Notes: generated from the letters alone by a model not told the origin. A stretch of 25,343 nt of DNA from Deltaproteobacteria bacterium (GCA_017861215.1 JAGFXN010000006.1:1-25343), one strand, 5' to 3'; counted from the first letter of the stretch, positions 463-17,882 are shown. Numbers and translations are program-made.

Positions 463-540
463 TTACTGCGGATGACCGGCAGGCATCGCTGGATGGCCGG
501 CAGGCATTCCTTCAGGCATCGGCTGGTGTCCGGCGGGCAG
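463..540 (-). repeat. Intragenic (M/L)PAGH repeats at the NuoM C-terminus
   Basis: LPAGHQ-PMPEG-MPAGHP-A-MPAGHPQ; near-identical DNA units GGATG(A/G)CCGGCAGGCAT 21 nt apart on the + strand. Confidence 0.85.
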
Positions 541-2117: not shown

Positions 2118-4112
2118 TTAACGGAACACATAAAAAGCTAGGATCGCTACTACGCCAAGTGCCATCCCCATAGCATAGTTATGCACATAGCCGGACTGAA
2201 GTCCCTTTAGTGCGGCGGCAAAACCCATCACCAGCTTCGCGGTTCCGTTGACAACTCCGTCAACAATCACTACGTCAAACCCTTTCCAGAGAAGATTGCC
2301 GAACGCTTTGCAAGGGTTAACGAAGATAAAATCGTACAGTTCGTCGATGTACCATTTGTTAAAGACGAATCTGTACAGTGTCGGGAACGTTGCGGTGAAC
2401 TTCTCCGGAAGACTCCTGTTGGCCATATACATGGTAAATGCAATGGAAATACCGATGAGGGCAATGACTACCGAGCCGGCCATCAGCCCGAACTCAAGCG
2501 CATGGGAATGATGTGCGCCAGTGTGAGCATATTGTTTGCCATATTCGTTCGCAAGTTCAAAGACAGGATCAAGCCAGTGCTCGAAATAGTTGGGCAGCAT
2601 ACCCAGCAGTTTCGGCATGCCGATATAGCCGCCGACCACTGCGAGCAAGCCAAGTACCATTAGCGGGATGGTAATTACCAGCGGTGACTCGTGGAGATAC
2701 TCCTTGACCTTCGGGTTGATCCGGCACTCACCGAAGAAGGTCATGAATACCAGCCGGAACATGTAGAACGCCGTAAAGCATGCGGCAACACAGCCGACAC
2801 CCCAAAGGACTATATTCACTCCGCCGTGATACGGGTTGGCAAATGCCTGCCAGAGAATCTCGTCCTTGGAGAAGAAGCCGGAGAAACCGGGGATACCGGC
2901 AATGGCTATGGTAGACACAAGGAAAGTAATGAAGGTAATCGGCAGCGCCTTACGCAGGCCCCCCATATTGCGCATGTCCTGCGCATCGTCATGGAGGTGC
3001 CCTTTATGCAGGGCATGGTGCATGGCATGGATGACCGAACCGGACCCGAGGAACAGGCAGGCCTTGAAGAAAGCGTGGGTCATCAGGTGGAAGATACCGG
3101 CACCGAAAGCTCCGACCCCCATTGCCAGAAACATGAACCCCAACTGGGAAACGGTCGAGTATGCCAGAACTCTCTTGATATCATTCTGGGCGGTACCGAT
3201 GGTAGCAGCAAAGATCGCTGTAGCTGCGCCGACTACAGCAACCACCAGCATTGTCTCCGGAGCCTTGATGAAGACGAAACTCATTCTGCCGATCATGTAC
3301 ACACCGGCGGTAACCATGGTGGCGGCATGGATGAGTGCCGATACCGGTGTCGGACCTTCCATCGCGTCAGGCAGCCAGGTAAAGAGTGGAATCTGGGCTG
3401 ATTTACCGGTAGCACCGACAAAGAAGCAGAGCGTAGCGATAGTGACGATGCCACCATAAGGGAGGAGGTGGGAGGCTGCCTTAATTTCAACGAAATTGAC
3501 TGTCCAGATATTGTGATTACTGCCAAGCCACCAGTACAGCAGAAAAAGCCCGAGGAGAAAGCCGAAGTCACCGACCCTGTTCATGACGAAGGCTTTCTTG
3601 GCAGCATCGCCGGCCGACTTCTTCTCAAAGTAATAACCGATCAGCAGGTAGGAACAGAGACCAACTCCCTCCCAGCCGATGAACATGACAAGCATGTTGG
3701 CGCCGAGTACAAGGAGAAGCATCGACATGCAGAAAAGATTCAGGTAGGCGAAGAATCGGTAAAACCCCTCTTCGCCATGCATGTAGCCGATTGAGTAGAG
3801 GTGGATGAGCGTACCGACTCCGGTAACTACCATAATCATGACAGCGGATAAAGGGTCCACCAGAAAAGCCATGTCAGCCTTGAAACTGCCGGCCTGGATC
3901 CAGGTGTATACCACCTTCTCGAATACCCTCTGTTCGGCGGGCATACCGACCAACTGCATCAGGATTCCACAGGAGACGAGAAACGACAGGAATATCATCA
4001 GCGTGCCGAGGCCGCCGATAACCGTCTCGTTCTTGATCTTCTTGCCGAATAAGCCGTTGATCAGAAAGCCGATCAGTGGAAAGAGTGGTATGAGCCATAC
4101 ATTGTCAAGCAT
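2118..4112 (-). CDS. nuoL: NADH-quinone oxidoreductase subunit L
   Basis: 664 aa; FIGWEGVGLCSYLLIG, NRVGDFG, GKSAQIPLFTWLPDAMEGPTPVSALIHAATMVTAG and C-terminal KWYIDELY lateral-helix region. Confidence 0.98.
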   Translation of the reverse strand: MLDNVWLIPLFPLIGFLINGLFGKKIKNETVIGGLGTLMIFLSFLVSCGILMQLVGMPAEQRVFEKVVYTWIQAGSFKADMAFLVDPLSAVMIMVVTGVGTLIHLYSIGYMHGEEGFYRFFAYLNLFCMSMLLLVLGANMLVMFIGWEGVGLCSYLLIGYYFEKKSAGDAAKKAFVMNRVGDFGFLLGLFLLYWWLGSNHNIWTVNFVEIKAASHLLPYGGIVTIATLCFFVGATGKSAQIPLFTWLPDAMEGPTPVSALIHAATMVTAGVYMIGRMSFVFIKAPETMLVVAVVGAATAIFAATIGTAQNDIKRVLAYSTVSQLGFMFLAMGVGAFGAGIFHLMTHAFFKACLFLGSGSVIHAMHHALHKGHLHDDAQDMRNMGGLRKALPITFITFLVSTIAIAGIPGFSGFFSKDEILWQAFANPYHGGVNIVLWGVGCVAACFTAFYMFRLVFMTFFGECRINPKVKEYLHESPLVITIPLMVLGLLAVVGGYIGMPKLLGMLPNYFEHWLDPVFELANEYGKQYAHTGAHHSHALEFGLMAGSVVIALIGISIAFTMYMANRSLPEKFTATFPTLYRFVFNKWYIDELYDFIFVNPCKAFGNLLWKGFDVVIVDGVVNGTAKLVMGFAAALKGLQSGYVHNYAMGMALGVVAILAFYVFR

Positions 4113-4157: not shown

Positions 4158-4460
4158 CTACCACTTCAGCATGTTCATGTCTTCAACATCGTTTGATTCG
4201 CGGTTCTTGTAAAAGGCAATCATCAACGCCAGACCGACAGCAGCCTCGGCAGCCGCAACAGTCATTATGAAGAAGACAAAAACCTGTCCGTCGAGATTCC
4301 CCAGGAACCTTGAAAAGGCGATAAAAGTGAGATTGACCGCATTCAGCATCAATTCAACACACATGAAGATGACGATGGCATTCCTGCGAGTAAGAACACC
4401 GATCATGCCGATAGCAAACAGAATTGCGCTTAAGATGAGGTAGCCGTTAAGTGAAACCAT
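4158..4460 (-). CDS. nuoK: NADH-quinone oxidoreductase subunit K
   Basis: 100 aa, 3 TM; [20 protein letters not shown] and [11 protein letters not shown]. Confidence 0.98.
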
Positions 4461-4478: not shown

Positions 4479-4982
4479 CTACAGTTTTTTCTTGGAGAGA
4501 ATAACTGCGCCAATAATTGCTACCAGCAACAGCACCGAGGTAATCTCGAACGGAAGAAGAAACTCGGTATAAAGAGACTTGCCGATAAGCTCGGTATGTC
4601 CGACTTTAGCGATCAAAGCGGAGTCAACAACACCTTTCGTGCCGGTAAGGGAACTTCTCCAGAGCAGATACCAGGTCTGAATGAGCAGCAGGACTCCGGT
4701 CATAACACCGAGGAAAAGAGCATGGTTAGTCCTTCCGCCTGACTCGCTCTTGAGATTAAGGAGCATGATGACGAAGACAATCAGAACCATTATGGCGCCG
4801 GCATAGACTATGATCTGAATGGCAGCCATGAAATGAGCTTCAAGCATGACATAAAGGGTGGCAAGACAGAAGAAAGTCATGATTAGCGACAGGGCGCTGT
4901 TAATCGGGTTCTTGTTGGTTATCACCAGTATGCTGGAGATGATGGCGATTGCAGCCACAAGGCTGAAAAACAAGGTTTCCAT
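4479..4982 (-). CDS. nuoJ: NADH-quinone oxidoreductase subunit J
   Basis: 167 aa; NPINSAL, QIIVYAGAIMVLIVFVIMLL, LLPFEITSVLLLVAIIGA. Confidence 0.97.
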   Translation of the reverse strand: METLFFSLVAAIAIISSILVITNKNPINSALSLIMTFFCLATLYVMLEAHFMAAIQIIVYAGAIMVLIVFVIMLLNLKSESGGRTNHALFLGVMTGVLLLIQTWYLLWRSSLTGTKGVVDSALIAKVGHTELIGKSLYTEFLLPFEITSVLLLVAIIGAVILSKKKL

Positions 4983-4992
4983 TGCTGCTCCT

Positions 4993-5391
4993 TTATTTCT
5001 TTTCTAGCAGTCTTTCTTTATTAAATACAAAATCGGAACGCTGGTAACTGGCAAGTTCAAAGGTCTGAGTCATGCCGATAGCATCAACCGGACAAGCTTC
5101 TACGCAGTAACCGCAAAAGATGCAGCGGAGCATGTCGATTTCGTACCTGGCGGCAAACTTGTCATGGTTTGCGTCCTCGCCGGCTTCAACCGTGATACAC
5201 TTTGCCGGACAGACAGTCGGGCATAGGTAGCAGGCGACACATTTGGCGCTGTTGTGCGAAACCTTCAGCGTGTGAAGTCCGCGAAAATTCGGTGCAACCA
5301 CCGGCCTCTCTTCCGGGTACTGGAGAGTAATCGGTTTCTTGAAGAGATGTTGCAGTGTTATCAGCAGACCTTTAATAAGGGGTACAATCAT
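4993..5391 (-). CDS. nuoI: NADH-quinone oxidoreductase subunit I (2x[4Fe-4S])
   Basis: 132 aa; TLQYPEE, CVACYLCPTVCP and CIFCGYCVEACP. Confidence 0.97.
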   Translation of the reverse strand: MIVPLIKGLLITLQHLFKKPITLQYPEERPVVAPNFRGLHTLKVSHNSAKCVACYLCPTVCPAKCITVEAGEDANHDKFAARYEIDMLRCIFCGYCVEACPVDAIGMTQTFELASYQRSDFVFNKERLLEKK

Positions 5392-5434: not shown

Positions 5435-6481
5435 CTACTTCTGAAAAAGCGTGATCCAGAATGCATTCCCCATGATAAGAAACAGGGTCAGCGGCAAAAA
5501 GACCTTCCAGCCAAGCTTCATCAGCTGGTCGTAGCGGTAGCGTGGGTATGTTGCCCGTATCCAGATACAAATGAACATGAGAACATAGACCTTGGCAATG
5601 AAGTTGAGAACAGAAGGCAACGGCCCGTGCCAGCCGCCCAGAAAAAGGGTTGTTGTTACGGCACAGACTGTCACCATATTGGCATACTCTGCCATGAAAA
5701 ACATGGCGTACTTCATGCTCGAATACTCGGTGCAGAAGCCGGAAACAAGTTCTGTCTCCGCTTCAGGGAGGTCGAACGGTGTCCGGTTGATTTCAGCCAG
5801 TGAACAGATGAAGAATAGTATCCCGGCAACGAACAGGAACGGATTGCGGAAGATATACCAGCCGAAAAGTCCCGCCTGGTCGGCAACTATCGCCTGCAGG
5901 GAAAGCGACTGGGAGACCATGAAGACGCAGACTATCGCCAGCCCGGCAGCAAGTTCGTAGGAAATCATCTGGGCAGAGGCGCGCAGGCCACCAAGCAGGG
6001 AGTATTTGCTGTTTGACGACCATCCGGCCAGAACAATGCCGTATACGCCGAGAGAAGCCATGGCCAGGATATAAAGAACACCGATATTGAGGTCAAAGAC
6101 TGTCCCGGTCTGGTCAGCGTAGGCAGCTATCTGCAGAGGCACCTTGTACCCCATCACTTCGATGGTATCCCCGAAAGGGATGACAGCAAAGGAAATGAAA
6201 GCCGTAATCAGGGCGACGAGCGGTGCCAGAACAAAAGCGAACTTGCTCGCCTCCGCCGGGATGATCTCCTCCTTGAAGAAGAGCTTCAGTCCGTCGGCAA
6301 TCGGCTGCAGAAGCCCGATAGGGCCGGTTCTGTTCGGTCCGATCCGCACCTGCATATGACCGATGATCTTCCGCTCGGCGTAGGTGGCATAGGCAACGGT
6401 AAGCAGAACGAAAACAAATGCCACAAGCACTTTTAGTATCATTGCTCCGTAGTATATGAGCGGTAGTCCTAATATTTCCAT
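5435..6481 (-). CDS. nuoH: NADH-quinone oxidoreductase subunit H
   Basis: 348 aa; ERKIIGHMQVRIGPNR, QPIADGLKLFFKE, RTPFDLPEAETELVSG, WIRATYPRYRYDQLM. Confidence 0.98.
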   Translation of the reverse strand: MEILGLPLIYYGAMILKVLVAFVFVLLTVAYATYAERKIIGHMQVRIGPNRTGPIGLLQPIADGLKLFFKEEIIPAEASKFAFVLAPLVALITAFISFAVIPFGDTIEVMGYKVPLQIAAYADQTGTVFDLNIGVLYILAMASLGVYGIVLAGWSSNSKYSLLGGLRASAQMISYELAAGLAIVCVFMVSQSLSLQAIVADQAGLFGWYIFRNPFLFVAGILFFICSLAEINRTPFDLPEAETELVSGFCTEYSSMKYAMFFMAEYANMVTVCAVTTTLFLGGWHGPLPSVLNFIAKVYVLMFICIWIRATYPRYRYDQLMKLGWKVFLPLTLFLIMGNAFWITLFQK

Positions 6482-6531: not shown

Positions 6532-9012
6532 CTATTTGCTGACTGTTACGTAGGTTACAGGAGACCCGGTTGCAATGTTGTTGATTGAGTTGCTGTCAAA
6601 GTGATACGGAGCAAAGACAACTCCTTCCGGCATACGGAGCCCGACTTTAACCGGCAGAGAAAGCTCACCGCTGGCAGATTTTACCTTTACCGTATCCCCT
6701 TCAGCAACACCCAGCCTGGCTGCATCCTTACGTCCCAGTTCGATGTATTGCTCAGGGCAGACCAACATCGGTCCCTCGCCAAAACGTGACATCGTCCCGC
6801 AGTGATAAAGAGCACTGCCGATTACAAGAGCGAATTTTCCCTGTTCCGCAGCAGGCGCAGACCCGGTAACCGCGACAAGTTTCGGTGCAATGTTAACAGG
6901 ATAGACGCTACCGTCATCGCCCAGGTTCTCGAATGTCAGACCTTCGTAACCAGATGTCGTGGCTGCAATCTCTTTAAGGAGTTCGGCGGCATCAGAAGAA
7001 ACGGCTGCACCTGAAAGTTTGCCTATCAGTCCGGCAAAGATTTCCCGGTCACTCCTTGACAGTCCAACAGCCTTGACAGCCTTTCTGATACGCTGCACGG
7101 CACGACCGGCGCTGGTGAAGGTGCCGCATTTTTCGGCAAACGACTTTACCGGCAGAACGACGTCAGCCATTTGGGCTGTTTCAGTCAGGAAAAGATCCTG
7201 GACAATAAGGAACGGCACAGCATCAAGGGCTTTTACGATCTTTGCCCTGTCAGGATAGGAGACAACAGGATTTTCACCGGCAACATACAGCAACTTGACC
7301 GCTCCGCTCATGCAGCCATCGATAATCGCCGCGGCGTCCCTGCCACCGGAGGTCGGGTGGATGCCCAGGTCGGCAGCCCCCTGACTGTTATTCTTCTCGG
7401 CAAGAATAAGGAGGCCGCAGCCCTCCTTGCCAACTTTACCGGTAAGAATAGCAAGGTTCGCCAGCGCCTGCGCCAGTGCCTTGCCATGACCCGGATAGGC
7501 AAGGCCGAGAGGCATAAGGATGAGAGCCTTGTCAGCCTTCGCATAGTCACGGGCAAGCTCTCTGATTGTCTCTGTAGGAATCCCTGTCGATTCTGAAGCA
7601 CTGTCGAGAGAAATTTCAGCAAGTGCCTTGTTGAGAGCTTCGAAGCCCTGTGCCGAGCTGTCCGCCAGGCCTTCGTCAACCAGTACCTTTGCAATGGCAT
7701 TGACAAGCGCAACTTCGCTGGCCGGCTTATGTACATAGGTCGTTGCGTCAGGAAGCTTTGACAGCTTGCCGCTCTTGTCAGAGATTATTCTTAAATCCAC
7801 CCCTTTACGCTTGACGCCGAGATTGATCTCGAAGCCGATAACAGGATGTGTTTCATAGGCATCGGTCTTGACAACAAGGAGCAGGTCAGTCTTCTGGATG
7901 TCAGCGATGACTGAAGGGGATGAGGTAATGCCGAAACTCTCTTTCATCCCTTGGGTAAGAGCTGCGTGAGCATAGCCGGCTGAATGGTCAATGCTGTCTG
8001 TGCCGACTGTACCCTTGAAGAGCTTTCTGAAAAGGAGCAGCTCCTCATTTGTTAGTCTCGGGGTCACGAGACCGGCAATGGCGGATGCATCGGCTGATTT
8101 TTGCTCCGCAAGTTTGGCAGCAATCAATGCAAGCGCTTCATCCCAGGCAGCAGGCACAAGCCCGCCATTTTTACGGATCAGAGGTGTTTGCAGACGCTTC
8201 TCGCTGTTAACAAACTGATAGGCAAAGCGGCCGCGGCCGCAGAGCTGGCCGTTGTGAAACCCCTGGTCCTCATCGTAGATAGTCGTCAGGACCTTGTCGT
8301 CCTTGACACCAAGAGTCAGCTGGCAGCCAGTTGCGCAGTACGAGCAGACAGACTTGACCTTTTTTAGCGCCCACCATCTGGCCTTGAACTTGAACGGCTT
8401 GGCAAGCAGCGCACCAACCGGGCAGACAGAAATGCAGGAGCCGCAGTATTCGCAGTCGAGCTTACCGTCAAAAGGTGTGCCGATTTTTGCCTCAATACCG
8501 CGGTTTACAAATGAGTAGGCTCCGAAGGAAACTATTTCATCACAAATACGCGCGCATTTGCCGCAGTGAATACAGCGGTTCTGATCACGCTCAATGAGTG
8601 GGTTGTCGTAGTCGATCTCCCAGCGAAACTTTTCGTCAGTGAAATCATTTCTATCAACTTTATATTCGTAGGTAAGGTTCTGTAGATCACAGTCTCCGGC
8701 AGCATCACAGACAGGACAATCAAGCGGATGCTTGAGCAGGAGCAGTTCAAGAACAAGTTTTCTGGCTTTGATAATCTCATCAGTGGTTGTACGGACAATC
8801 ATCCCCTCAGATACAGGAGTTGTACAAGCCGGGATAAGACGCCCTTTCATCTGCTCGACTTCAACCAGACACATACGACAACCGCCGAACGGATGCAGCT
8901 TCTTGTCATGGCAGAGTATCGGTATCCGAATGCCGGCAGCCTTGGCAGCATCGTATATCGTAGCATCTGGAGCTACGGCAACCTGTATGTCGTCTATAGT
9001 AAGATTAACCAT
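6532..9012 (-). CDS. nuoG: NADH-quinone oxidoreductase subunit G, long FdhA/HydA-like form
   Basis: Likely start is ATG 9012 (MVNLTIDD, GAGG-type SD upstream) rather than 9033. Motifs: CHDKKLHPFGGCRMC..C (2Fe-2S), HPLDCPVCDAAGDC, CIHCGKCARIC, CEYCGSCISVCP, CSYCATGC..C, plus a molybdopterin-oxidoreductase-type body and C-terminal domain. Sits between nuoF and nuoH. Confidence 0.93.
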   Translation of the reverse strand: MVNLTIDDIQVAVAPDATIYDAAKAAGIRIPILCHDKKLHPFGGCRMCLVEVEQMKGRLIPACTTPVSEGMIVRTTTDEIIKARKLVLELLLLKHPLDCPVCDAAGDCDLQNLTYEYKVDRNDFTDEKFRWEIDYDNPLIERDQNRCIHCGKCARICDEIVSFGAYSFVNRGIEAKIGTPFDGKLDCEYCGSCISVCPVGALLAKPFKFKARWWALKKVKSVCSYCATGCQLTLGVKDDKVLTTIYDEDQGFHNGQLCGRGRFAYQFVNSEKRLQTPLIRKNGGLVPAAWDEALALIAAKLAEQKSADASAIAGLVTPRLTNEELLLFRKLFKGTVGTDSIDHSAGYAHAALTQGMKESFGITSSPSVIADIQKTDLLLVVKTDAYETHPVIGFEINLGVKRKGVDLRIISDKSGKLSKLPDATTYVHKPASEVALVNAIAKVLVDEGLADSSAQGFEALNKALAEISLDSASESTGIPTETIRELARDYAKADKALILMPLGLAYPGHGKALAQALANLAILTGKVGKEGCGLLILAEKNNSQGAADLGIHPTSGGRDAAAIIDGCMSGAVKLLYVAGENPVVSYPDRAKIVKALDAVPFLIVQDLFLTETAQMADVVLPVKSFAEKCGTFTSAGRAVQRIRKAVKAVGLSRSDREIFAGLIGKLSGAAVSSDAAELLKEIAATTSGYEGLTFENLGDDGSVYPVNIAPKLVAVTGSAPAAEQGKFALVIGSALYHCGTMSRFGEGPMLVCPEQYIELGRKDAARLGVAEGDTVKVKSASGELSLPVKVGLRMPEGVVFAPYHFDSNSINNIATGSPVTYVTVSK

Positions 9013-9052
9013 CTCGACCTCTGTCTCCCTCAAAATTTCTCAGGTGAAGCTG

Positions 9053-10693
9053 TTACTCGATCGCCATGAAGCGGCAGGCATCATAGCATGACTTGCACTT
9101 GGTACATTTTTCCTTGATCAGTTCGGCAACCTGTCCTTTTTCCCATTTAATAGCATCAACCGGACAGGCCTTGAGACAGGCGCCGCATTTGACACATTTC
9201 TCGGGTATAACCTGCCAGAGGAGAAGTTCCTTGCAGCAGTTGGAAGGACAGCGCTTGTCGTTTATGTGAGCCTCATACTCTTGGCGGAAATACTTGATTG
9301 TGGAGAGAATCGGATTAGGAGCTGTCTGGCCAAGACCGCAGAGCGAAGCCTTCTTGATGGTGGTACCCATTTCGAGAAGTTTCTCGATGTCAGATGCCTC
9401 ACCTCGCCCTTCGGTGATCTTCTCAAGGATATCGAGCATCGCTTTCAGACCGATCCTGCAGGGAACGCACTTGCCGCAGGACTCGTCACGAGTAAAATTA
9501 AGAAAGAAGCGGGCAACGTCAACCATGCAGGTTGTTTCGTCCATGACGACCAGTCCGCCGGAACCCATCATGGCACCAGCCTTGATCAGTGAATCATAAT
9601 CAACAGGAGTGTCGAGAATATCCGCCGGTATACAACCGCCGGAAGGCCCGCCGGCCTGAACAGCCTTGAACTTCCTGTTATTGGCGATACCACCGCAGAC
9701 GCTGTAGATAACATCACGGACAGTCATCCCGGCCGGAACTTCGACAAGTCCGGTATGCTTCACCTTGCCGGTGACCGCAAAAATCTTGGTGCCCTTGGTT
9801 GTCTCGGTTCCCAGAGAAGCGTACCATTCTGCACCTTTAAGGATGATATGGCGGACGTTGGCAAAAGTTTCAACATTATTGATATTAGTCGGCTTGCCCC
9901 AGAGGCCCTTGACAGCCGGGAACGGCGGCCGGGGACGCGGCATGCCGCGCTCGCCTTCAATAGAGGCCATCAGCGCGGTCTCTTCTCCGCAGACGAACGC
10001 TCCAGCGCCCTTTTTGATTCTGAGATCAAAATCAAAACCGAATCCCATGACGTTTTTGCCGAGATAGCCCTTTTCGTAGCAGACATCGATGGCCATCTGC
10101 AGGCGCTCAATAGCCAGAGGATATTCGGCCCGGACATAGACATAACCGTAGGTGGCGCCGATAGCGAATCCGGCGATCATCATCCCCTCGATGATACAGT
10201 AGGGGTCGCCTTCGAGGATAGAACGGTCCATGAATGCACCGGGATCACCTTCGTCGGCATTGCAGATGACATATTTCAGCTTTCCGGGTGATGCGGCACA
10301 GAAAGACCACTTCATGCCGGTGGGGAAACCTCCGCCGCCGCGCCCTCTGAGGCCGGATTTCTTAACAAATGTATTATAATAAGGCTTGGCCTTGCGCTTC
10401 TCAAGAATCGTCATATTGACAATGTGTTCATTGACAATGTTTTCGACCTCTTCCGGCTTAACAAAATCGTAGGTGACACGCCCCTGCTCTTCGGTGATGA
10501 TATCGACCAGAACATCGTTGGCACAGAGACCGCGACAGCCGGTCTTGATGACGTCACAGCGCTTGCCGACAACGGCACTAAGGCCCTTCTCGGCAATAAC
10601 CCTGACGAACTCGGCCTCGACCTCTTTGGCCCCCATCGAAACACCGCCGGTCCCCTGGCAAATCAGAATTTTTATTGCTGCATTTTCGCTCAT
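9053..10693 (-). CDS. nuoF: NADH-quinone oxidoreductase subunit F, HydB/HndC-like multidomain form (apparently with an internal in-frame deletion)
   Basis: 546 aa; SGLRGRGGGGFPTGMKW, CNADEGDPGAFMDR, AFVCGEETAL, GGPSGG, CGKCVPCRIG..CGLG; N-terminal thioredoxin-like domain and C-terminal 2x CxxCxxCxxxC. Confidence 0.93.
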   Translation of the reverse strand: MSENAAIKILICQGTGGVSMGAKEVEAEFVRVIAEKGLSAVVGKRCDVIKTGCRGLCANDVLVDIITEEQGRVTYDFVKPEEVENIVNEHIVNMTILEKRKAKPYYNTFVKKSGLRGRGGGGFPTGMKWSFCAASPGKLKYVICNADEGDPGAFMDRSILEGDPYCIIEGMMIAGFAIGATYGYVYVRAEYPLAIERLQMAIDVCYEKGYLGKNVMGFGFDFDLRIKKGAGAFVCGEETALMASIEGERGMPRPRPPFPAVKGLWGKPTNINNVETFANVRHIILKGAEWYASLGTETTKGTKIFAVTGKVKHTGLVEVPAGMTVRDVIYSVCGGIANNRKFKAVQAGGPSGGCIPADILDTPVDYDSLIKAGAMMGSGGLVVMDETTCMVDVARFFLNFTRDESCGKCVPCRIGLKAMLDILEKITEGRGEASDIEKLLEMGTTIKKASLCGLGQTAPNPILSTIKYFRQEYEAHINDKRCPSNCCKELLLWQVIPEKCVKCGACLKACPVDAIKWEKGQVAELIKEKCTKCKSCYDACRFMAIE

Positions 10694-10726
10694 GACTGAA
10701 TTGTCCCTTACCGAAATAGTATCGAG

Positions 10727-11251
10727 CTACTTTTTCATTGGTCTCTGATTATAGTCTGCAATGATCTCTTCCACCTTCTGCACCGTCATTGAACCGTAGG
10801 TGGCATCATTGACCATGGCAAGAGGCGCCATCCCGCAAGCTCCGAGACAGGCGACCTTTTCGAAGGTATAGCGCAAGTCTGCCGATGTTTCCGCGTGTCC
10901 GATGTGAAGCTTGTCAAAAAAAGTCTCAACAATCCTGGTAGCACCCTGGACGTGACAGGCAGTACCAACGCAAACGCGGATGATGAAACGGCCGCGGGGC
11001 TTGAGATGGAACTGTGCATAAAAGGTTAGCACTCCGTAGATCTGGCTCGGATAAACATTGAGCCTCTCGGCAACAAGCTCTATCGTCGGCTTCGGAACAT
11101 ACCCATACTCGTCCTGAATCCCCTGAAGAACCGGCATCAGGTTGCCGTGAAGGGTGAGATATTTATCGATAACCGCATTTGCTGCCGTCAAATCGATCGG
11201 CTCTTCAACCTTCTCTTCAGTTTCACTATTTTGGGCGGTTGCGTTACTCAT
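10727..11251 (-). CDS. nuoE: NADH-quinone oxidoreductase subunit E ([2Fe-2S])
   Basis: 174 aa; VLQGIQDEYGYVP, GVLTFYAQF, CVGTACHVQG, CLGACGMAP. Confidence 0.96.
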   Translation of the reverse strand: MSNATAQNSETEEKVEEPIDLTAANAVIDKYLTLHGNLMPVLQGIQDEYGYVPKPTIELVAERLNVYPSQIYGVLTFYAQFHLKPRGRFIIRVCVGTACHVQGATRIVETFFDKLHIGHAETSADLRYTFEKVACLGACGMAPLAMVNDATYGSMTVQKVEEIIADYNQRPMKK

Positions 11252-11277: not shown

Positions 11278-12450
11278 TTAACGGTCAATTTCACCCAGAA
11301 CGATATCAAGGGTTCCGATTACAGCTACAAGGTCGGCAATCATGGCGCCTTTTGCCATCTTCTCGATAGCAGAGAGATTGACAAATGAAGGGGGACGAAC
11401 TCTCATCCGGTATGGCTTGTTACCGCCGTCACTGACGAGATAAAAACCCAGCTCGCCTTTCGGCGCCTCCACTGACTGGTAAATCTCACCTTCAGGAACA
11501 GGGAACCCTTCGCTGGCAATCTTGAAGTGATGGATAAGACCTTCGATTGAGTTATAGACGTTCTCTTTCGGCGGATAGCAGACCTGCGGCTCGTCTGCGA
11601 GCACCGGACCAGGCTTGAGAGCTTTCAATGCCTGGGAGATTATGTTCACTGCTTCGCGCATTTCAATAAGGCGGACCTTGTAACGGTCGAAGGTGTCACA
11701 CTTCTCGCCGACAGGAACCTTGAAGCTGTACTTGTCATAACCGCTGTACGGGTTGTCGCGGCGAAGGTCCCAGTCAACGCCGGAGCCACGCAGCGCCGGA
11801 CCGGTGATCCCTGCATCGATTGCGTCCTCGGCAGAGATCACGCCGTTACCGACAGTCCGCTGCAACCAGATGGTGTTCTTGGTGAGAAGCCCCTCGTAGG
11901 TATCGAAGAAACCGGGGAAAGTGTCGATAATTTCCTGGACATCCTTTTCAAACCCGGCATAGACATCGGCTGAAAGCCCGCCGACGCGGTAGTAGTTGCT
12001 CGTCATGCGTGCACCGGAAAGCTTTTCATACAGCTGCATAACCTTCTCACGCTCGCGGAAGGCATAGATGAATACTGTCATGGCGCCGATATCGAGAGCG
12101 TGACAGGCAAGCCATACCAGATGAGACTTGAGACGGGTCAGCTCCGCCGTAATGACACGGACCGTTTGTGCCCTCTCAGGCACCTCGATACCGAGAAGCT
12201 TTTCCACCGCCAGGACATACCCGAGATTGTTGCTCATCGGCGCCAGATAGTCCATTCGGTCGGTCAGCGGCAGTGCCTGATGATAAGTCCTGTACTCGGA
12301 AAGCTTTTCAATACCGCGGTGGAGATAACCGATATGCGGGGTAATCTTGCGGATTATCTCACCGTCAAGTTCGAGTACCAACCGCAAAACCCCGTGTGTT
12401 GACGGATGCTGCGGTCCCATGTTTAGTGTCATTGTCTCTATTTGTGCCAT
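11278..12450 (-). CDS. nuoD: NADH-quinone oxidoreductase subunit D
   Basis: Likely start is ATG 12450 (MAQIETMTLNMGPQHPSTHGVLRL); IGYLHRGIEK, VEAPKGELG, C-terminal DIVLGEIDR. Confidence 0.97.
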   Translation of the reverse strand: MAQIETMTLNMGPQHPSTHGVLRLVLELDGEIIRKITPHIGYLHRGIEKLSEYRTYHQALPLTDRMDYLAPMSNNLGYVLAVEKLLGIEVPERAQTVRVITAELTRLKSHLVWLACHALDIGAMTVFIYAFREREKVMQLYEKLSGARMTSNYYRVGGLSADVYAGFEKDVQEIIDTFPGFFDTYEGLLTKNTIWLQRTVGNGVISAEDAIDAGITGPALRGSGVDWDLRRDNPYSGYDKYSFKVPVGEKCDTFDRYKVRLIEMREAVNIISQALKALKPGPVLADEPQVCYPPKENVYNSIEGLIHHFKIASEGFPVPEGEIYQSVEAPKGELGFYLVSDGGNKPYRMRVRPPSFVNLSAIEKMAKGAMIADLVAVIGTLDIVLGEIDR

Positions 12451-12499
12451 TGATTTTTCACCCCTGCAGAGTGTTGAATACATGTATGTGTTTAGCGGA

Positions 12500-12985
12500 T
12501 CAGGAAAGGCGCCCCTTGTATGGCTCCCTATCCGGTCCCTGGAGTGGATAGTCCTTGCGCAGCGGATGACCGGCCCAGTCGTCCGTCATCAGAATCCTGC
12601 GCAGGTCAGGATGGCTATTGAAGGTTATGCCGAATAGATCGTACACCTCGCGCTCAAGCCATTCCGCTGTAGACCAGACCTTATAGACAGTATCGATCGA
12701 ACAGCAGCTCTCGCTGACTTGCGCCTTGATCCTGAGCCTGTCCTTGTTCGGGATGGAGTATAAATTGTAGACCATCATGAATCTCGGCTCCTGTCCAAGA
12801 TAGTCTACCGCGGTAACATCGGTCAGCAGGTTGAAGGCAAGAGCTGTCTTCAGGAAACTGCAGATGTCGACAATATTCTCTTTCTTCACGGTAACGGTGA
12901 CTTCGCCGCGAAATTCCTTGATGTCGACGATGTCAGCAGCGAAACGCTCTTTCAGCTTGATTACTGCACGATTATTTTCTGCCAT
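12500..12985 (-). CDS. nuoC: NADH-quinone oxidoreductase subunit C
   Basis: 161 aa; WLEREVYDLFGITF, HPDLRRILM, GHPLRKDYPL. Confidence 0.97.
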   Translation of the reverse strand: MAENNRAVIKLKERFAADIVDIKEFRGEVTVTVKKENIVDICSFLKTALAFNLLTDVTAVDYLGQEPRFMMVYNLYSIPNKDRLRIKAQVSESCCSIDTVYKVWSTAEWLEREVYDLFGITFNSHPDLRRILMTDDWAGHPLRKDYPLQGPDREPYKGRLS

Positions 12986-13018: not shown

Positions 13019-13531
13019 TTATGCAGCGGAGTCGTAACGCTCACCAAGACCGATTGTCGATCCGAAGGAGTTGCGCTCCCGCATTATCTTTTCCTGAAGC
13101 TTGATCAAGCCAAAGAGCAGAGCTTCCGGACGGGGAGGGCAACCCGGGATATAGACATCGACCGGTAAAGCTTCATCAACCCCCTGCACAACACTGTAGG
13201 TATCAAAAATTCCGCCTGAACAGGCGCAGGCCCCCATGGCAATCACCCATTTCGGCTCCGGCATCTGCTCATAAACCGTCATGATGACCGGCAGCATCTT
13301 TTTGGTGACGGTCCCGGCGATAATAATGCAGTCGGATTGACGCGGGGATGCACGGAAAATTATCCCGAAACGGTCAAGGTCATTGTGGGACGCCCCTGTT
13401 GCCATCATCTCGATGGCACAGCAAGCAAGACCGAAGGTCATCGGCCAGATGGATGATTTGCGTGCCCAGTTGACAAGGCCGTCCAGAGACGCGGTGAGAA
13501 TGTTATCTCCAAGAGGATTATCTACTCCCAT
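13019..13531 (-). CDS. nuoB: NADH-quinone oxidoreductase subunit B
   Basis: Likely start is ATG 13531 (MGVDNPLG), overlapping the nuoA stop by 10 nt; [45 protein letters not shown]. Confidence 0.97.
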
Positions 13532-13878
13532 TCCAAGGCTCCTTTTTTCCATACATAAATATAGCCGACGAAGAGGATTACCACGAATACCCCCATCTCC
13601 ATAAGGCCAAAAACCCCCAGACGCTTGAAAAGAACCGCCCAGGGGTAAAGGAATACACACTCTATATCGAACAGAATAAAAAGCATGGCTATTATGTAGA
13701 ACTTGATGGAGAAGCGCTCCTGCGCGCTACCTACAGGCTCGCAACCGCTTTCATACGGCTGAAGTTTGAGCGGCGAAATCTTTTTCTGACCGATAAGCGC
13801 TGAGAATACGACCGAGCCAAGCCCGAAACAGAGCGCAACCACCAAAAGTAAAATTATCGGGAGATATGCACCTAACAT
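13522..13878 (-). CDS. nuoA: NADH-quinone oxidoreductase subunit A
   Basis: Likely start is ATG 13878 ([15 protein letters not shown] upstream); [31 protein letters not shown]. Confidence 0.97.
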
Positions 13879-16891: not shown

Positions 16892-17042
16892 AATCAGGTT
16901 AAGGTAGAGATAGAGGAAATCCACAACCTGCTCTCGGGATCAGGGAACAAAGGATTTGGAAGTTGACTCTGCTGTTCACTATTCACAACTTTTTTCCTAT
17001 ACAATTTAGGAAATATAAACCAACCGCAGAAGGAGAAAGAAA

Positions 17043-17318
17043 ATGAGCTTTTTTACAATGTGTGTACTCGCAGCAGGCATCGGCATGGCACTCGGCACCC
17101 TCGGCACCGGCATTGGTCAGGGACTGGCAGTCGCCCGCGCCGTTGAAGGCGTTTCCCGCAACCCCGGCGCATCCGGCAAGATCCTCACCACCATGATGAT
17201 CGGTCTCGCCATGATCGAGTCGCTCGCCATCTACGCTCTCGTTGTCTGCCTCATCATCCTCTTTGCCAACCCGTACAAAGATATCGCCATCAAGCTTGCG
17301 GAAACTGTAGCAAAGTAA
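17043..17318 (+). CDS. atpE: ATP synthase F0 subunit c
   Basis: 91 aa; GxGxGxGQG, SRNP loop, MIESLAIY carboxylate; SD AAGGAG. Confidence 0.98.
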   Translation: MSFFTMCVLAAGIGMALGTLGTGIGQGLAVARAVEGVSRNPGASGKILTTMMIGLAMIESLAIYALVVCLIILFANPYKDIAIKLAETVAK

Positions 17319-17337
17319 TTTGTTCCTTTCCAGGAAG

Positions 17338-17381
17338 GCAATAAAAAAGGGGGAGCCATTTGGCACCCCCTTTTTTATTGC
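17338..17381. terminator. Intrinsic terminator after atpE (bidirectional geometry)
   Basis: GCAATAAAAAAGGGGG-AGCCATTTGGCA-CCCCCTTTTTTATTGC: long inverted repeat with A/T tracts on both sides. Confidence 0.9.
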
Positions 17382-17594: not shown

Positions 17595-17882
17595 ATGAAA
17601 CGGATATTAGGAATGCTTACGATCTTGGCAACAACCGCTTTGCTTTCAGTAGCGACTGTCATGGGCGCTGAAGCTACTATGGGTGTCATAGATCAGAAAG
17701 ATCAATGTCTGCTGGTAGCGGCAAATTGTGCTAACAGCGTAGATTCAATAAGCCAGAGAATTGAGCGGCTGAACAAAGAGATTGCCAAAGGTACGGATGT
17801 GTACACTACTGATGAGTTGCAAAGACTCAGGGATAAGCTGGATGATGCAGTCAGAACACTGGACGACCTGATCAGAAGTTAA
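17595..17882 (+). CDS. Small secreted/periplasmic hypothetical protein with CX6C motif and helical C-terminus
   Basis: Good SD; signal-peptide-like MKRILGMLTILATTALLSVATVMGA; KDQCLLVAANC..VDSISQRIERLNKEIAKG..VYTTDELQRL, a pattern I recall from small Geobacteraceae-type hypothetical proteins; has its own promoter and terminator. Confidence 0.85.
   Translation: MKRILGMLTILATTALLSVATVMGAEATMGVIDQKDQCLLVAANCANSVDSISQRIERLNKEIAKGTDVYTTDELQRLRDKLDDAVRTLDDLIRS

Follow-up and report, generated by a model that had tools for sequence, protein, structure and literature searches.

The window analysed here is a stretch of 25,343 nucleotides assigned to a Deltaproteobacteria bacterium (GCA_017861215.1, JAGFXN010000006.1:1-25343), which corresponds to contig C65 of a metagenome-assembled genome (MAG; 1.88 Mb, 294 contigs, 78% complete) whose closest named relatives are the Geobacteraceae. 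It carries an operon for complex I in which the genes follow the order nuoA-B-C-D-E-F-G-H-I-J-K-L-M-N, all of them on the minus strand, as established by Pfam for nuoA to nuoM and by comparison with relatives for nuoN (Table 1). A preliminary description of this DNA had spoken of a complete 14-subunit operon whose electron-input head, NuoEFG, resembles the HydABC module of electron-bifurcating enzymes. The core set NuoA-N is indeed present in one operon and in the expected order, but completeness does not hold to the letter, as nuoN is a 139-residue 5′ fragment, shortened only by the contig end. This fragment ends ahead of the antiporter domain and gave no match in a Pfam search; over all of its 139 residues, it shares 57-70% identity with the open reading frame (ORF) located after nuoM in the majority of related loci. 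The resemblance of the head to HydABC, by contrast, was borne out by the scores, residues and phylogeny described below.

All the NuoF motifs quoted in the preliminary description were found in the ORF assigned to nuoF, and so was the HydB-like layout that it had proposed, in which a core that binds flavin mononucleotide (FMN) and NAD is flanked by an additional domain at each end. In Pfam, this protein matches Complex1_51K, SLBB and NADH_4Fe-4S, plus a dicluster of the Fer4 type at its C-terminus, and residues 1-100 can be aligned with the thioredoxin-like domain of 7t2r_B, 7q4v_B and 9n5u_B. The core has GTKIF and a GRGGGGF loop. Further downstream lies the hinge or B2 site, a Cys3His site that holds Zn in most of the solved HydB and NfnB structures. 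Three residues of NuoF at this site (H476, C482 and C487) are invariant and, because C354, placed right after GGPSG, is the sole other Bfu-specific invariant cysteine, it is the likely fourth ligand of the zinc site described for Thermotoga maritima HydB. The C-terminal domain, which bears clusters B3 and B4, is the one that faces ferredoxin in Bfu enzymes; all eight of its cysteines are conserved without exception in the 19 nuo-embedded and 60 soluble homologues, and classical NuoF has none of them.

Comparison with solved structures places this subunit among the bifurcating enzymes. NuoF scored 685 bits against the B subunit of a bifurcating NiFe hydrogenase (7t2r_B), 673, 635 and 605 bits against FeFe-HydB chains (7q4v_B, 8a6t_B and 7p5h_B, respectively), and 672 and 661 bits against NfnB/StnB (9n5u_B and 8oh5_B), in matches that start shortly ahead of the glycine-rich loop and extend to the C-terminus. 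By contrast, the scores were 399 bits against Thermus Nqo1 (2fug_1), ~344 bits against Escherichia coli NuoF and 342-364 bits against the non-bifurcating FdsB chains. The alignment against bifurcating and non-bifurcating HydB/NuoF proteins, which had been suggested as a check, separates a group at 605-685 bits from another at 342-399 bits. NuoE, which has the motifs CVGTAC...CLGAC, finds its best solved matches in HydC/BfuC chains (170 bits for 8a6t_C vs 79 bits for Nqo2). In the NCBI equivalog families, NuoF falls short of the cut-offs of TIGR01959 (486 vs 559 bits) and NF008436 (368 vs 749 bits), and NF010120 is the only one that it passes (398 bits, with a cut-off of 389).

Losey et al. (2020) proposed four features by which bifurcating beta subunits may be recognised, namely additional Fe-S domains, an Ala or Glu and a Met in DPG-x-F-x-DR, a Phe where the FMN site would otherwise have Tyr (GAGA-x), and GGPSG. 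All four are found in NuoF (extra Fe-S domains, A153/M155, F233 and GGPSG348-352), and the G-A-F-M marker given in the preliminary description is essentially that of Losey et al., A and M being those of DPGAFMDR. A further residue, Asp150, corresponds to Asp219 of BamH, which lies beside FMN N5 and is singled out in a 2026 preprint on that enzyme (bioRxiv 10.64898/2026.04.10.717634); classical NuoF has Glu at this position. The classical NuoF proteins of the relatives read CDEMEPGTYKDR, with T/K, Tyr and GGAST at the marker positions, and lack both appended domains, as had been stated beforehand and as column counts in these paralogues confirm. As scores, marker residues, predicted cofactor ligands and phylogeny (see below) all agree, the NuoEFG head is almost certainly a HydABC/Bfu-type module.

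Such heads are not a novelty of this contig. Schut et al. (2022; Front Microbiol 13:946711, PMC9304861) predicted complexes of this kind, with Geobacter sulfurreducens as an example and with their BfuB proteins in clades 38 and 39, and named them Nuo-Bfu, a term that appears in no other paper of the searchable literature (subscription-only papers lie outside its scope). To survey their distribution, 80 loci with BfuB-like proteins were collected from named genomes and their neighbourhoods were scored using the Nuo proteins of the window. A full nuo neighbourhood was observed only in Desulfuromonadales (16 loci) and Nitrospirota (three loci), so that both published host groups were recovered independently; the remaining loci have E and F only, with or without G-like genes, and encode soluble enzymes.

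In a maximum-likelihood tree of 89 sequences, rooted on the classical NuoF of the relatives, the window protein belongs to a clade of Desulfuromonadales nuo-embedded proteins with 100% support, nested among soluble BfuB, while the branch to classical NuoF measures 1.22 + 1.22 substitutions per site. Grouping with non-bifurcating subunits had been named beforehand as the outcome that would speak against a bifurcating head; instead, NuoF falls within BfuB and apart from classical NuoF, in a tree that took in neither characterised non-bifurcating FdsB nor S. wolfei HydB; the distance from FdsB is given by the structure scores above (342-364 vs 605-685 bits). In the free tree, the nuo-embedded proteins of Nitrospirota branch apart as a clade of their own, but a single clade with the Desulfuromonadales is not rejected by the approximately unbiased test (p = 0.45), and the Bfu module may have entered nuo once or twice.

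The relatives whose second NuoF locus was examined all have an additional, classical nuo operon, whose NuoF (~420-440 residues) shares ~41% identity with that of the window; it was seen at loci L097-L101 (genomes G004, G009, G014, G020 and G030) and was not found in this MAG, which is 78% complete. Other BfuB paralogues lie in the relatives without adjacent genes for Nuo membrane or Q-module subunits (L102, L103 on contig C21 of G013, L104, L105 and L106). Two of these types can be told apart. One consists of two tandem paralogues of 635-637 residues with Asp219 in ADEGDPG, which are likely of the BamH type and, in the related genome that encodes them, share 56-58% identity with the window NuoF and 51% with P0004, an intact ortholog discussed below. 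The other type has 527-570 residues and reads GDEGDPGAYMDR.

Conservation within this family bears on the simplest alternative, that is, that the complex is an ordinary NADH:menaquinone oxidoreductase for which ferredoxin is no substrate. In such a case, the Bfu domains would have been carried over from an ancestor and would serve the structure of the complex, the buffering of electrons or its protection, much as N1a and N7 do in classical complex I. The score of NuoF above the NF010120 cut-off agrees with this possibility, as do the degenerate N-terminal metal site of the clade (see below), the fact that ferredoxin is not needed thermodynamically, and the lack of any experiment, among those found, showing ferredoxin use by a Nuo-Bfu complex. 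However, the B1 ligands, the hinge site (H476, C482 and C487), the eight B3/B4 cysteines and every marker residue are retained in the 16 Desulfuromonadales and three Nitrospirota nuo-embedded homologues, which are two distant lineages. Moreover, the mean identity of the C-terminal ferredoxin domain within the order is 77%, not far below the 81-90% of the catalytic core, which points to purifying selection on this domain rather than to decay.

The genetics of Geobacter also argues against an ordinary enzyme. A separate classical complex I is kept in the same genomes, which suggests that both play different roles, and transposon sequencing by Chan et al. (2017) showed that GSU0338-0351, the orthologous Bfu-type operon of G. 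sulfurreducens, is essential on acetate/fumarate and that the classical type E operon, GSU3429-3445, is not. We consider an ordinary NADH-only enzyme improbable. As regards conservation in the genus, Butler et al. (2010) reported that six out of six Geobacter genomes keep the 14-subunit enzyme, with NuoE and NuoF among the best conserved proteins.

The N-terminal domain of NuoF shows a different pattern, as one of the four canonical cysteines of its [2Fe-2S]/Zn site is missing and C12, C53 and C57 are kept. Position 17, where the second one would be expected, is Gly in all 16 Desulfuromonadales nuo-embedded proteins (including L017-L031), and the same 16 proteins share an invariant, clade-specific Cys46, a position that is Val, Ile or Ala in other BfuB. 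The Nitrospirota nuo-embedded proteins, on the other hand, retain the canonical CxxxxC. The loss of Cys17 together with the gain of Cys46 may be a ligand swap. It is known that the corresponding B5 site of NfnABC holds Zn and that the B5 cluster is not essential there.

NuoG is predicted to carry an N-terminal [2Fe-2S] cluster, a His-ligated [4Fe-4S] cluster, two more [4Fe-4S] clusters and one of the N7 type, followed by a formate-dehydrogenase-like domain without cofactor. Its Pfam domains are Fer2_4, NADH-G_4Fe-4S_3, Fer4_Nqo3, Molybdop_Fe4S4, Molybdopterin and Molydop_binding, and translation likely starts at the ATG at 9012. The best solved relatives are alpha chains (FdsA) of NAD-dependent formate dehydrogenase, with 393-409 bits, vs 257 bits for mycobacterial NuoG and 189 bits for Thermus Nqo3. 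The 19 cysteines and His102 predicted to bind the five clusters are invariant in 18 nuo-embedded homologues. At the position of the molybdenum ligand, by contrast, FdsA reads CARVCH and NuoG reads SAGYAH, so that the ligand is replaced by Ala. This position holds Ala in 12 homologues and Cys-Tyr in three, and is deleted in the other three: the Ala-His form was observed in Geobacteraceae, the Cys-Tyr form in the Desulfuromonas/Geopsychrobacter branch (L027, L028 and L031), and a 3-residue gap in Nitrospirota (L037, L040 and L041). An active formate dehydrogenase was consequently rejected, since the Cys/Sec-His pair that serves molybdenum is absent; judged by these residues, NuoG is a five-cluster electron wire.

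The NuoF of the window differs from its orthologs in one additional respect, as it has 546 residues, compared with 590-601 in the full-length orthologs examined. Protein P0004, known from other metagenomes, is 100% identical to it save for an additional segment of 47 residues (VDQQ...VIDE) that separates F109 from V110, which corresponds to an in-frame deletion of 141 bp in the window, whose junction shows a GTT microhomology. In the alignments, the missing stretch lies just ahead of SGLRGRGG, the glycine-rich loop at FMN, and is the counterpart of approximately residues 1-50 of Nqo1 and of positions 1-40 in TIGR01959. Within the order, no other part of NuoF is less conserved (mean identity of 62%, with 11 of its 47 columns invariant). 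The shortened form is on record for this contig only, the other members of its cluster being fragments. The deletion may exist as an allele or have arisen in the assembly; that is, the enzyme of this MAG could be impaired, or the contig could be wrongly assembled. In any case, this copy is a poor exemplar for experiments, for which an intact ortholog, e.g., that of GSU0338-0351, would be preferable.

Regarding the surroundings of the operon, an aminotransferase gene and atpI/atpB lie upstream of nuo in divergent orientation, consistent with the layout of G. sulfurreducens, where the ATP-synthase genes GSU0333-0334 adjoin nuo GSU0338-0351 (Butler et al. 2010). Between atpB and a gene for a DegP-like protease there are two small ORFs, of 95 and 127 residues, that gave no match in Pfam. 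At the other end of the operon, the C-terminal tail of NuoM is rich in Pro, Met and His and has three (L/M)PAGH repeats (LPAGH..MPAGH..MPAGH), in the segment LPAGHQPMPEGMPAGHPAMPAGHPQ (window positions 463-540). For nuoB, the likely start is the ATG at 13531, preceded by GGAG.

Table 1. Genes, predicted NuoF sites and small ORFs of the window (positions counted from its first nucleotide)
Feature	Position	Strand	Evidence
nuoA	13522-13878	minus	Oxidored_q4; start analysis
nuoB, N2 cluster, tandem-Cys motif	13019-13531	minus	Oxidored_q6; start analysis
nuoC	12500-12985	minus	Complex1_30kDa
nuoD	11278-12483	minus	Complex1_49kDa, 391 bits
nuoE, BfuC/HydC-type [2Fe-2S] subunit (C1 = N1a)	10727-11251	minus	2Fe-2S_thioredx, 172 bits
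nuoF, BfuB-type subunit, 546 aa (~593 aa in relatives)	9053-10693	minus	Pfam, solved-structure scores, tree, column counts
NuoF thioredoxin-like N-terminal domain (B5 site: C12, G17, C46, C53, C57)	10394-10693	minus	alignment
Junction of the in-frame 141-bp (47-aa) nuoF deletion	10364-10366	minus	comparison with P0004
NuoF NAD(H)/FMN-site motif CNADEGDPGAFMDR / ADEGDPGAFMDR, with bifurcating-type Asp150, Ala153, Met155	10223-10258	minus	
NuoF GGPSGGC, bifurcating-type SLBB motif, with Cys354	9632-9652	minus	
NuoF B1 (= N3) [4Fe-4S] ligands C406, C409, C412, C452	9335-9478	minus	
NuoF hinge/B2 site HINDKRCPSNCC (CPSNCC within): H476, C482, C487, probably C354	9233-9268	minus	
NuoF C-terminal 2x[4Fe-4S] ferredoxin domain (B3/B4; residues 541-593 in intact numbering), CVKCGACLKACP + CTKCKSCYDACR	9056-9214	minus	Fer4
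nuoG, BfuA-type subunit	6532-9033	minus	Pfam; FdsA chains are the best solved relatives
nuoH	5435-6481	minus	NADHdh, 420 bits
nuoI, 2x[4Fe-4S], N6a/N6b	4993-5391	minus	Fer4 dicluster families
nuoJ	4479-4982	minus	Oxidored_q3
nuoK	4158-4460	minus	Oxidored_q2
nuoL	2118-4112	minus	Proton_antipo_N/M/C
nuoM, antiporter-like	463-2079	minus	Proton_antipo_M, 274 bits
nuoN 5′ fragment of 139 aa; the contig ends at base 1	2-418	minus	relatives
Small ORF	17595-17882	plus	no Pfam match
Small ORF	16983-17366	minus	no Pfam match

The complex combines elements that are known from several systems. It shares with the published Nuo-Bfu a Bfu-type E/F/G set in the middle of nuoA-N, the same lineage and the same predicted cofactors and reaction (PMC9304861); nothing essential sets them apart, although the window copy has the 47-residue deletion in NuoF. 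The design is, therefore, already published, and the window is a confirmation of it, not a discovery. What is new here is the change from Cys17 to Gly with the invariant Cys46 in the Desulfuromonadales clade, and the NuoF deletion. With the soluble Bfu enzymes (NiFe-HydABCSL, 7t2r; FeFe-HydABC, 7q4v, 8a6t and 7p5h; NfnABC/StnABC, 9n5u and 8oh5), the complex has in common the FMN-site residues, B1, the hinge and B3/B4 of NuoF, as well as a NuoE that matches their C subunit. In contrast to them, its module for the third substrate is a membrane quinone reductase with a proton pump instead of a hydrogenase or a NADP site, and its acceptor, menaquinone (-74 mV), lies above NAD and not between NAD and ferredoxin.

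Another related system is BamGHI of class II benzoyl-CoA reductase, which has a HydBC-like module with the same domain set and comes from a related genus, but is soluble and delivers electrons to a HdrA-type module, not to a quinone pump. The paralogous BamGH(I) module of G. metallireducens is reported in a 2026 preprint to be reduced by both reduced ferredoxin and NADH, the ferredoxin being reduced using 2-oxoglutarate:ferredoxin oxidoreductase (bioRxiv 10.64898/2026.04.10.717634). Finally, classical complex I (E. coli, Thermus thermophilus and type E) consists of homologous subunits and shares the FMN-N3-N1b-N4-N5 wire as well as the membrane and Q modules, but its NuoF, of ~420-445 residues, has neither of the terminal Fe-S domains and, at the marker positions, reads T/K, Y, GGAST and Glu.

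On this basis, a function may be proposed for the complex. We give about even weight to the reading that the operon encodes a Nuo-Bfu complex I which confurcates NADH and reduced ferredoxin to menaquinone while pumping protons. Schut et al. (PMC9304861) predicted the same, with menaquinone as the third substrate and a simultaneous oxidation of NADH and reduced ferredoxin that drives pumping. The preliminary description had arrived at a coupling of NADH and ferredoxin to menaquinone reduction and pumping, which agrees with that hypothesis and was thus already in print. In structures of NfnABC, the minimal bifurcating site is [B1-FMN-C1], B3 and B4 pass electrons to ferredoxin, and ferredoxin sits in a tripod formed by the C-terminal domain of B, the C-terminal domain of C and the thioredoxin domain of B. 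All three elements of this tripod are kept in the subunits of the window.

In the proposed scheme, NuoA-D and NuoH-N would be an ordinary Q-module and pumping arm in which the NADH-input module has been replaced by BfuCBA (nuoE, nuoF and nuoG). NADH would give a hydride to FMN, and reduced ferredoxin would dock where the C-terminal domain of NuoF, the C-terminal domain of NuoE and the N-terminal domain of NuoF meet. Its single electrons would then reach the [B1-FMN-C1] site by way of B4/B3 and C1, the mobile cluster of NuoE, and the merged electrons would leave via B1 and the NuoG clusters towards NuoI, cluster N2 of NuoB and menaquinone, driving proton pumping. The net reaction would be NADH + 2 Fd(red) + 2 MQ -> NAD+ + 2 Fd(ox) + 2 MQH2, where Fd is ferredoxin and MQ is menaquinone. 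While the architecture on which this scheme is drawn is firm, we infer its chemistry.

The energetic interest of such a reaction may be estimated from the potentials given by Schut et al. (2022; PMC9304861), i.e., ~-280 mV for NADH, ~-500 mV for ferredoxin and -74 mV for menaquinone. With NADH alone, simple arithmetic gives ~206 mV, or ~40 kJ per menaquinone, enough for <3 H+ at a proton-motive force of ~150 mV. With the pair of NADH and ferredoxin, the mean donor potential would move from -280 mV to ~-390 mV, and the same arithmetic gives ~316 mV, or ~61 kJ per menaquinone, with which 3-4 H+/2e- would be affordable. In reverse, at the expense of the proton gradient, the enzyme could produce NADH and reduced ferredoxin from menaquinol.

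These potentials also bear on the use of NADH as the donor of a bifurcation (2 NADH + MQ + 2 Fd(ox) -> 2 NAD+ + MQH2 + 2 Fd(red)), which the preliminary description had offered as an example of coupling. The reaction would be nearly neutral (+206 mV and -220 mV with the potentials of Schut et al.). It would, however, leave no energy for pumping in spite of a full pump arm, and it would put NAD(H) and ferredoxin on opposite sides, as in no characterised Bfu enzyme, all of which keep them on the same side and have the third substrate on the other. The synthesis of pyruvate and 2-oxoglutarate on H2 or formate needs reduced ferredoxin, and might call for such a reaction. Acetate oxidation, on the contrary, makes an excess of reduced ferredoxin and consumes none, so that ferredoxin in Geobacter needs re-oxidation. 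We therefore regard this direction as very improbable.

That need for re-oxidation is supported by the genomes themselves. RnfD was found in only one of 31 related genomes (one of the 25 high-quality ones), whereas the alpha subunit of 2-oxoacid:ferredoxin oxidoreductase is present in all 31, this MAG included, and the tricarboxylic acid (TCA) cycle of Geobacter gives NADH, NADPH and reduced ferredoxin (Butler et al. 2010). The proposed complex would re-oxidise the ferredoxin reduced by 2-oxoglutarate:ferredoxin oxidoreductase in acetate oxidisers without Rnf. The same production of reduced ferredoxin, nearly always in the absence of Rnf, is nonetheless compatible with a dual-input complex I in which NADH is oxidised at FMN and ferredoxin, independently, at the C-terminal domain, with no energetic coupling between them. 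The extra domains would be in such a case a mere entry port for ferredoxin, and the enzyme would be functionally similar to the ferredoxin-dependent NDH-1. The conserved ferredoxin-facing domain would fit this alternative as well, but every characterised Bfu enzyme requires both NAD(H) and ferredoxin for turnover, and the bifurcating-type FMN residues (Asp150, Ala153, Met155 and Phe233) are retained, with no reversion to the classical set. An uncoupled dual-input enzyme thus seems unlikely to us, although it deserves consideration.

Several observations weigh against confurcation. The most general is that, with menaquinone (-74 mV) above NAD, both half-reactions are downhill and coupling is not thermodynamically required, which leaves room for an uncoupled dual-input or NADH-only enzyme. 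In addition, NADH alone could take the path from FMN through B1 to NuoG, as in classical complex I, whose wire is the same. Other oxidisers of ferredoxin may also exist in Geobacter, for instance the essential cluster GSU2795-2797, which encodes an electron transfer flavoprotein and a b-type cytochrome (Chan et al. 2017). The altered N-terminal metal site of the Desulfuromonadales (Cys17 to Gly) and the deletion in the NuoF of the window belong on the same side. Finally, neither an experimental test of any Nuo-Bfu nor a structure of a Geobacter complex I was found in the searchable literature.

Taking both sides together, ferredoxin is probably a substrate of the complex in some mode. The obligate character of its coupling to NADH is more tentative, as we lean slightly against it. 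The most complete version of the confurcating model, in which the enzyme is obligately confurcating, is the main route for the re-oxidation of TCA-cycle ferredoxin, pumps more H+/2e- than a NADH-only enzyme and is reversible, is attractive, but we find it rather doubtful as a whole.

If confurcation by this complex were true, it would explain how ferredoxin from the TCA cycle is disposed of without Rnf in Geobacter and its relatives, how a useful proton yield is obtained with a low-potential menaquinone, and why G. sulfurreducens cannot do without the Bfu-type complex I but can do without the classical one. Soluble flavin-based bifurcation would moreover be tied to chemiosmotic pumping, with a bearing on the evolution of the NADH module of complex I. 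In the most complete version of the model, this complex would be the first of the Bfu family shown to work in a membrane as an ion pump.

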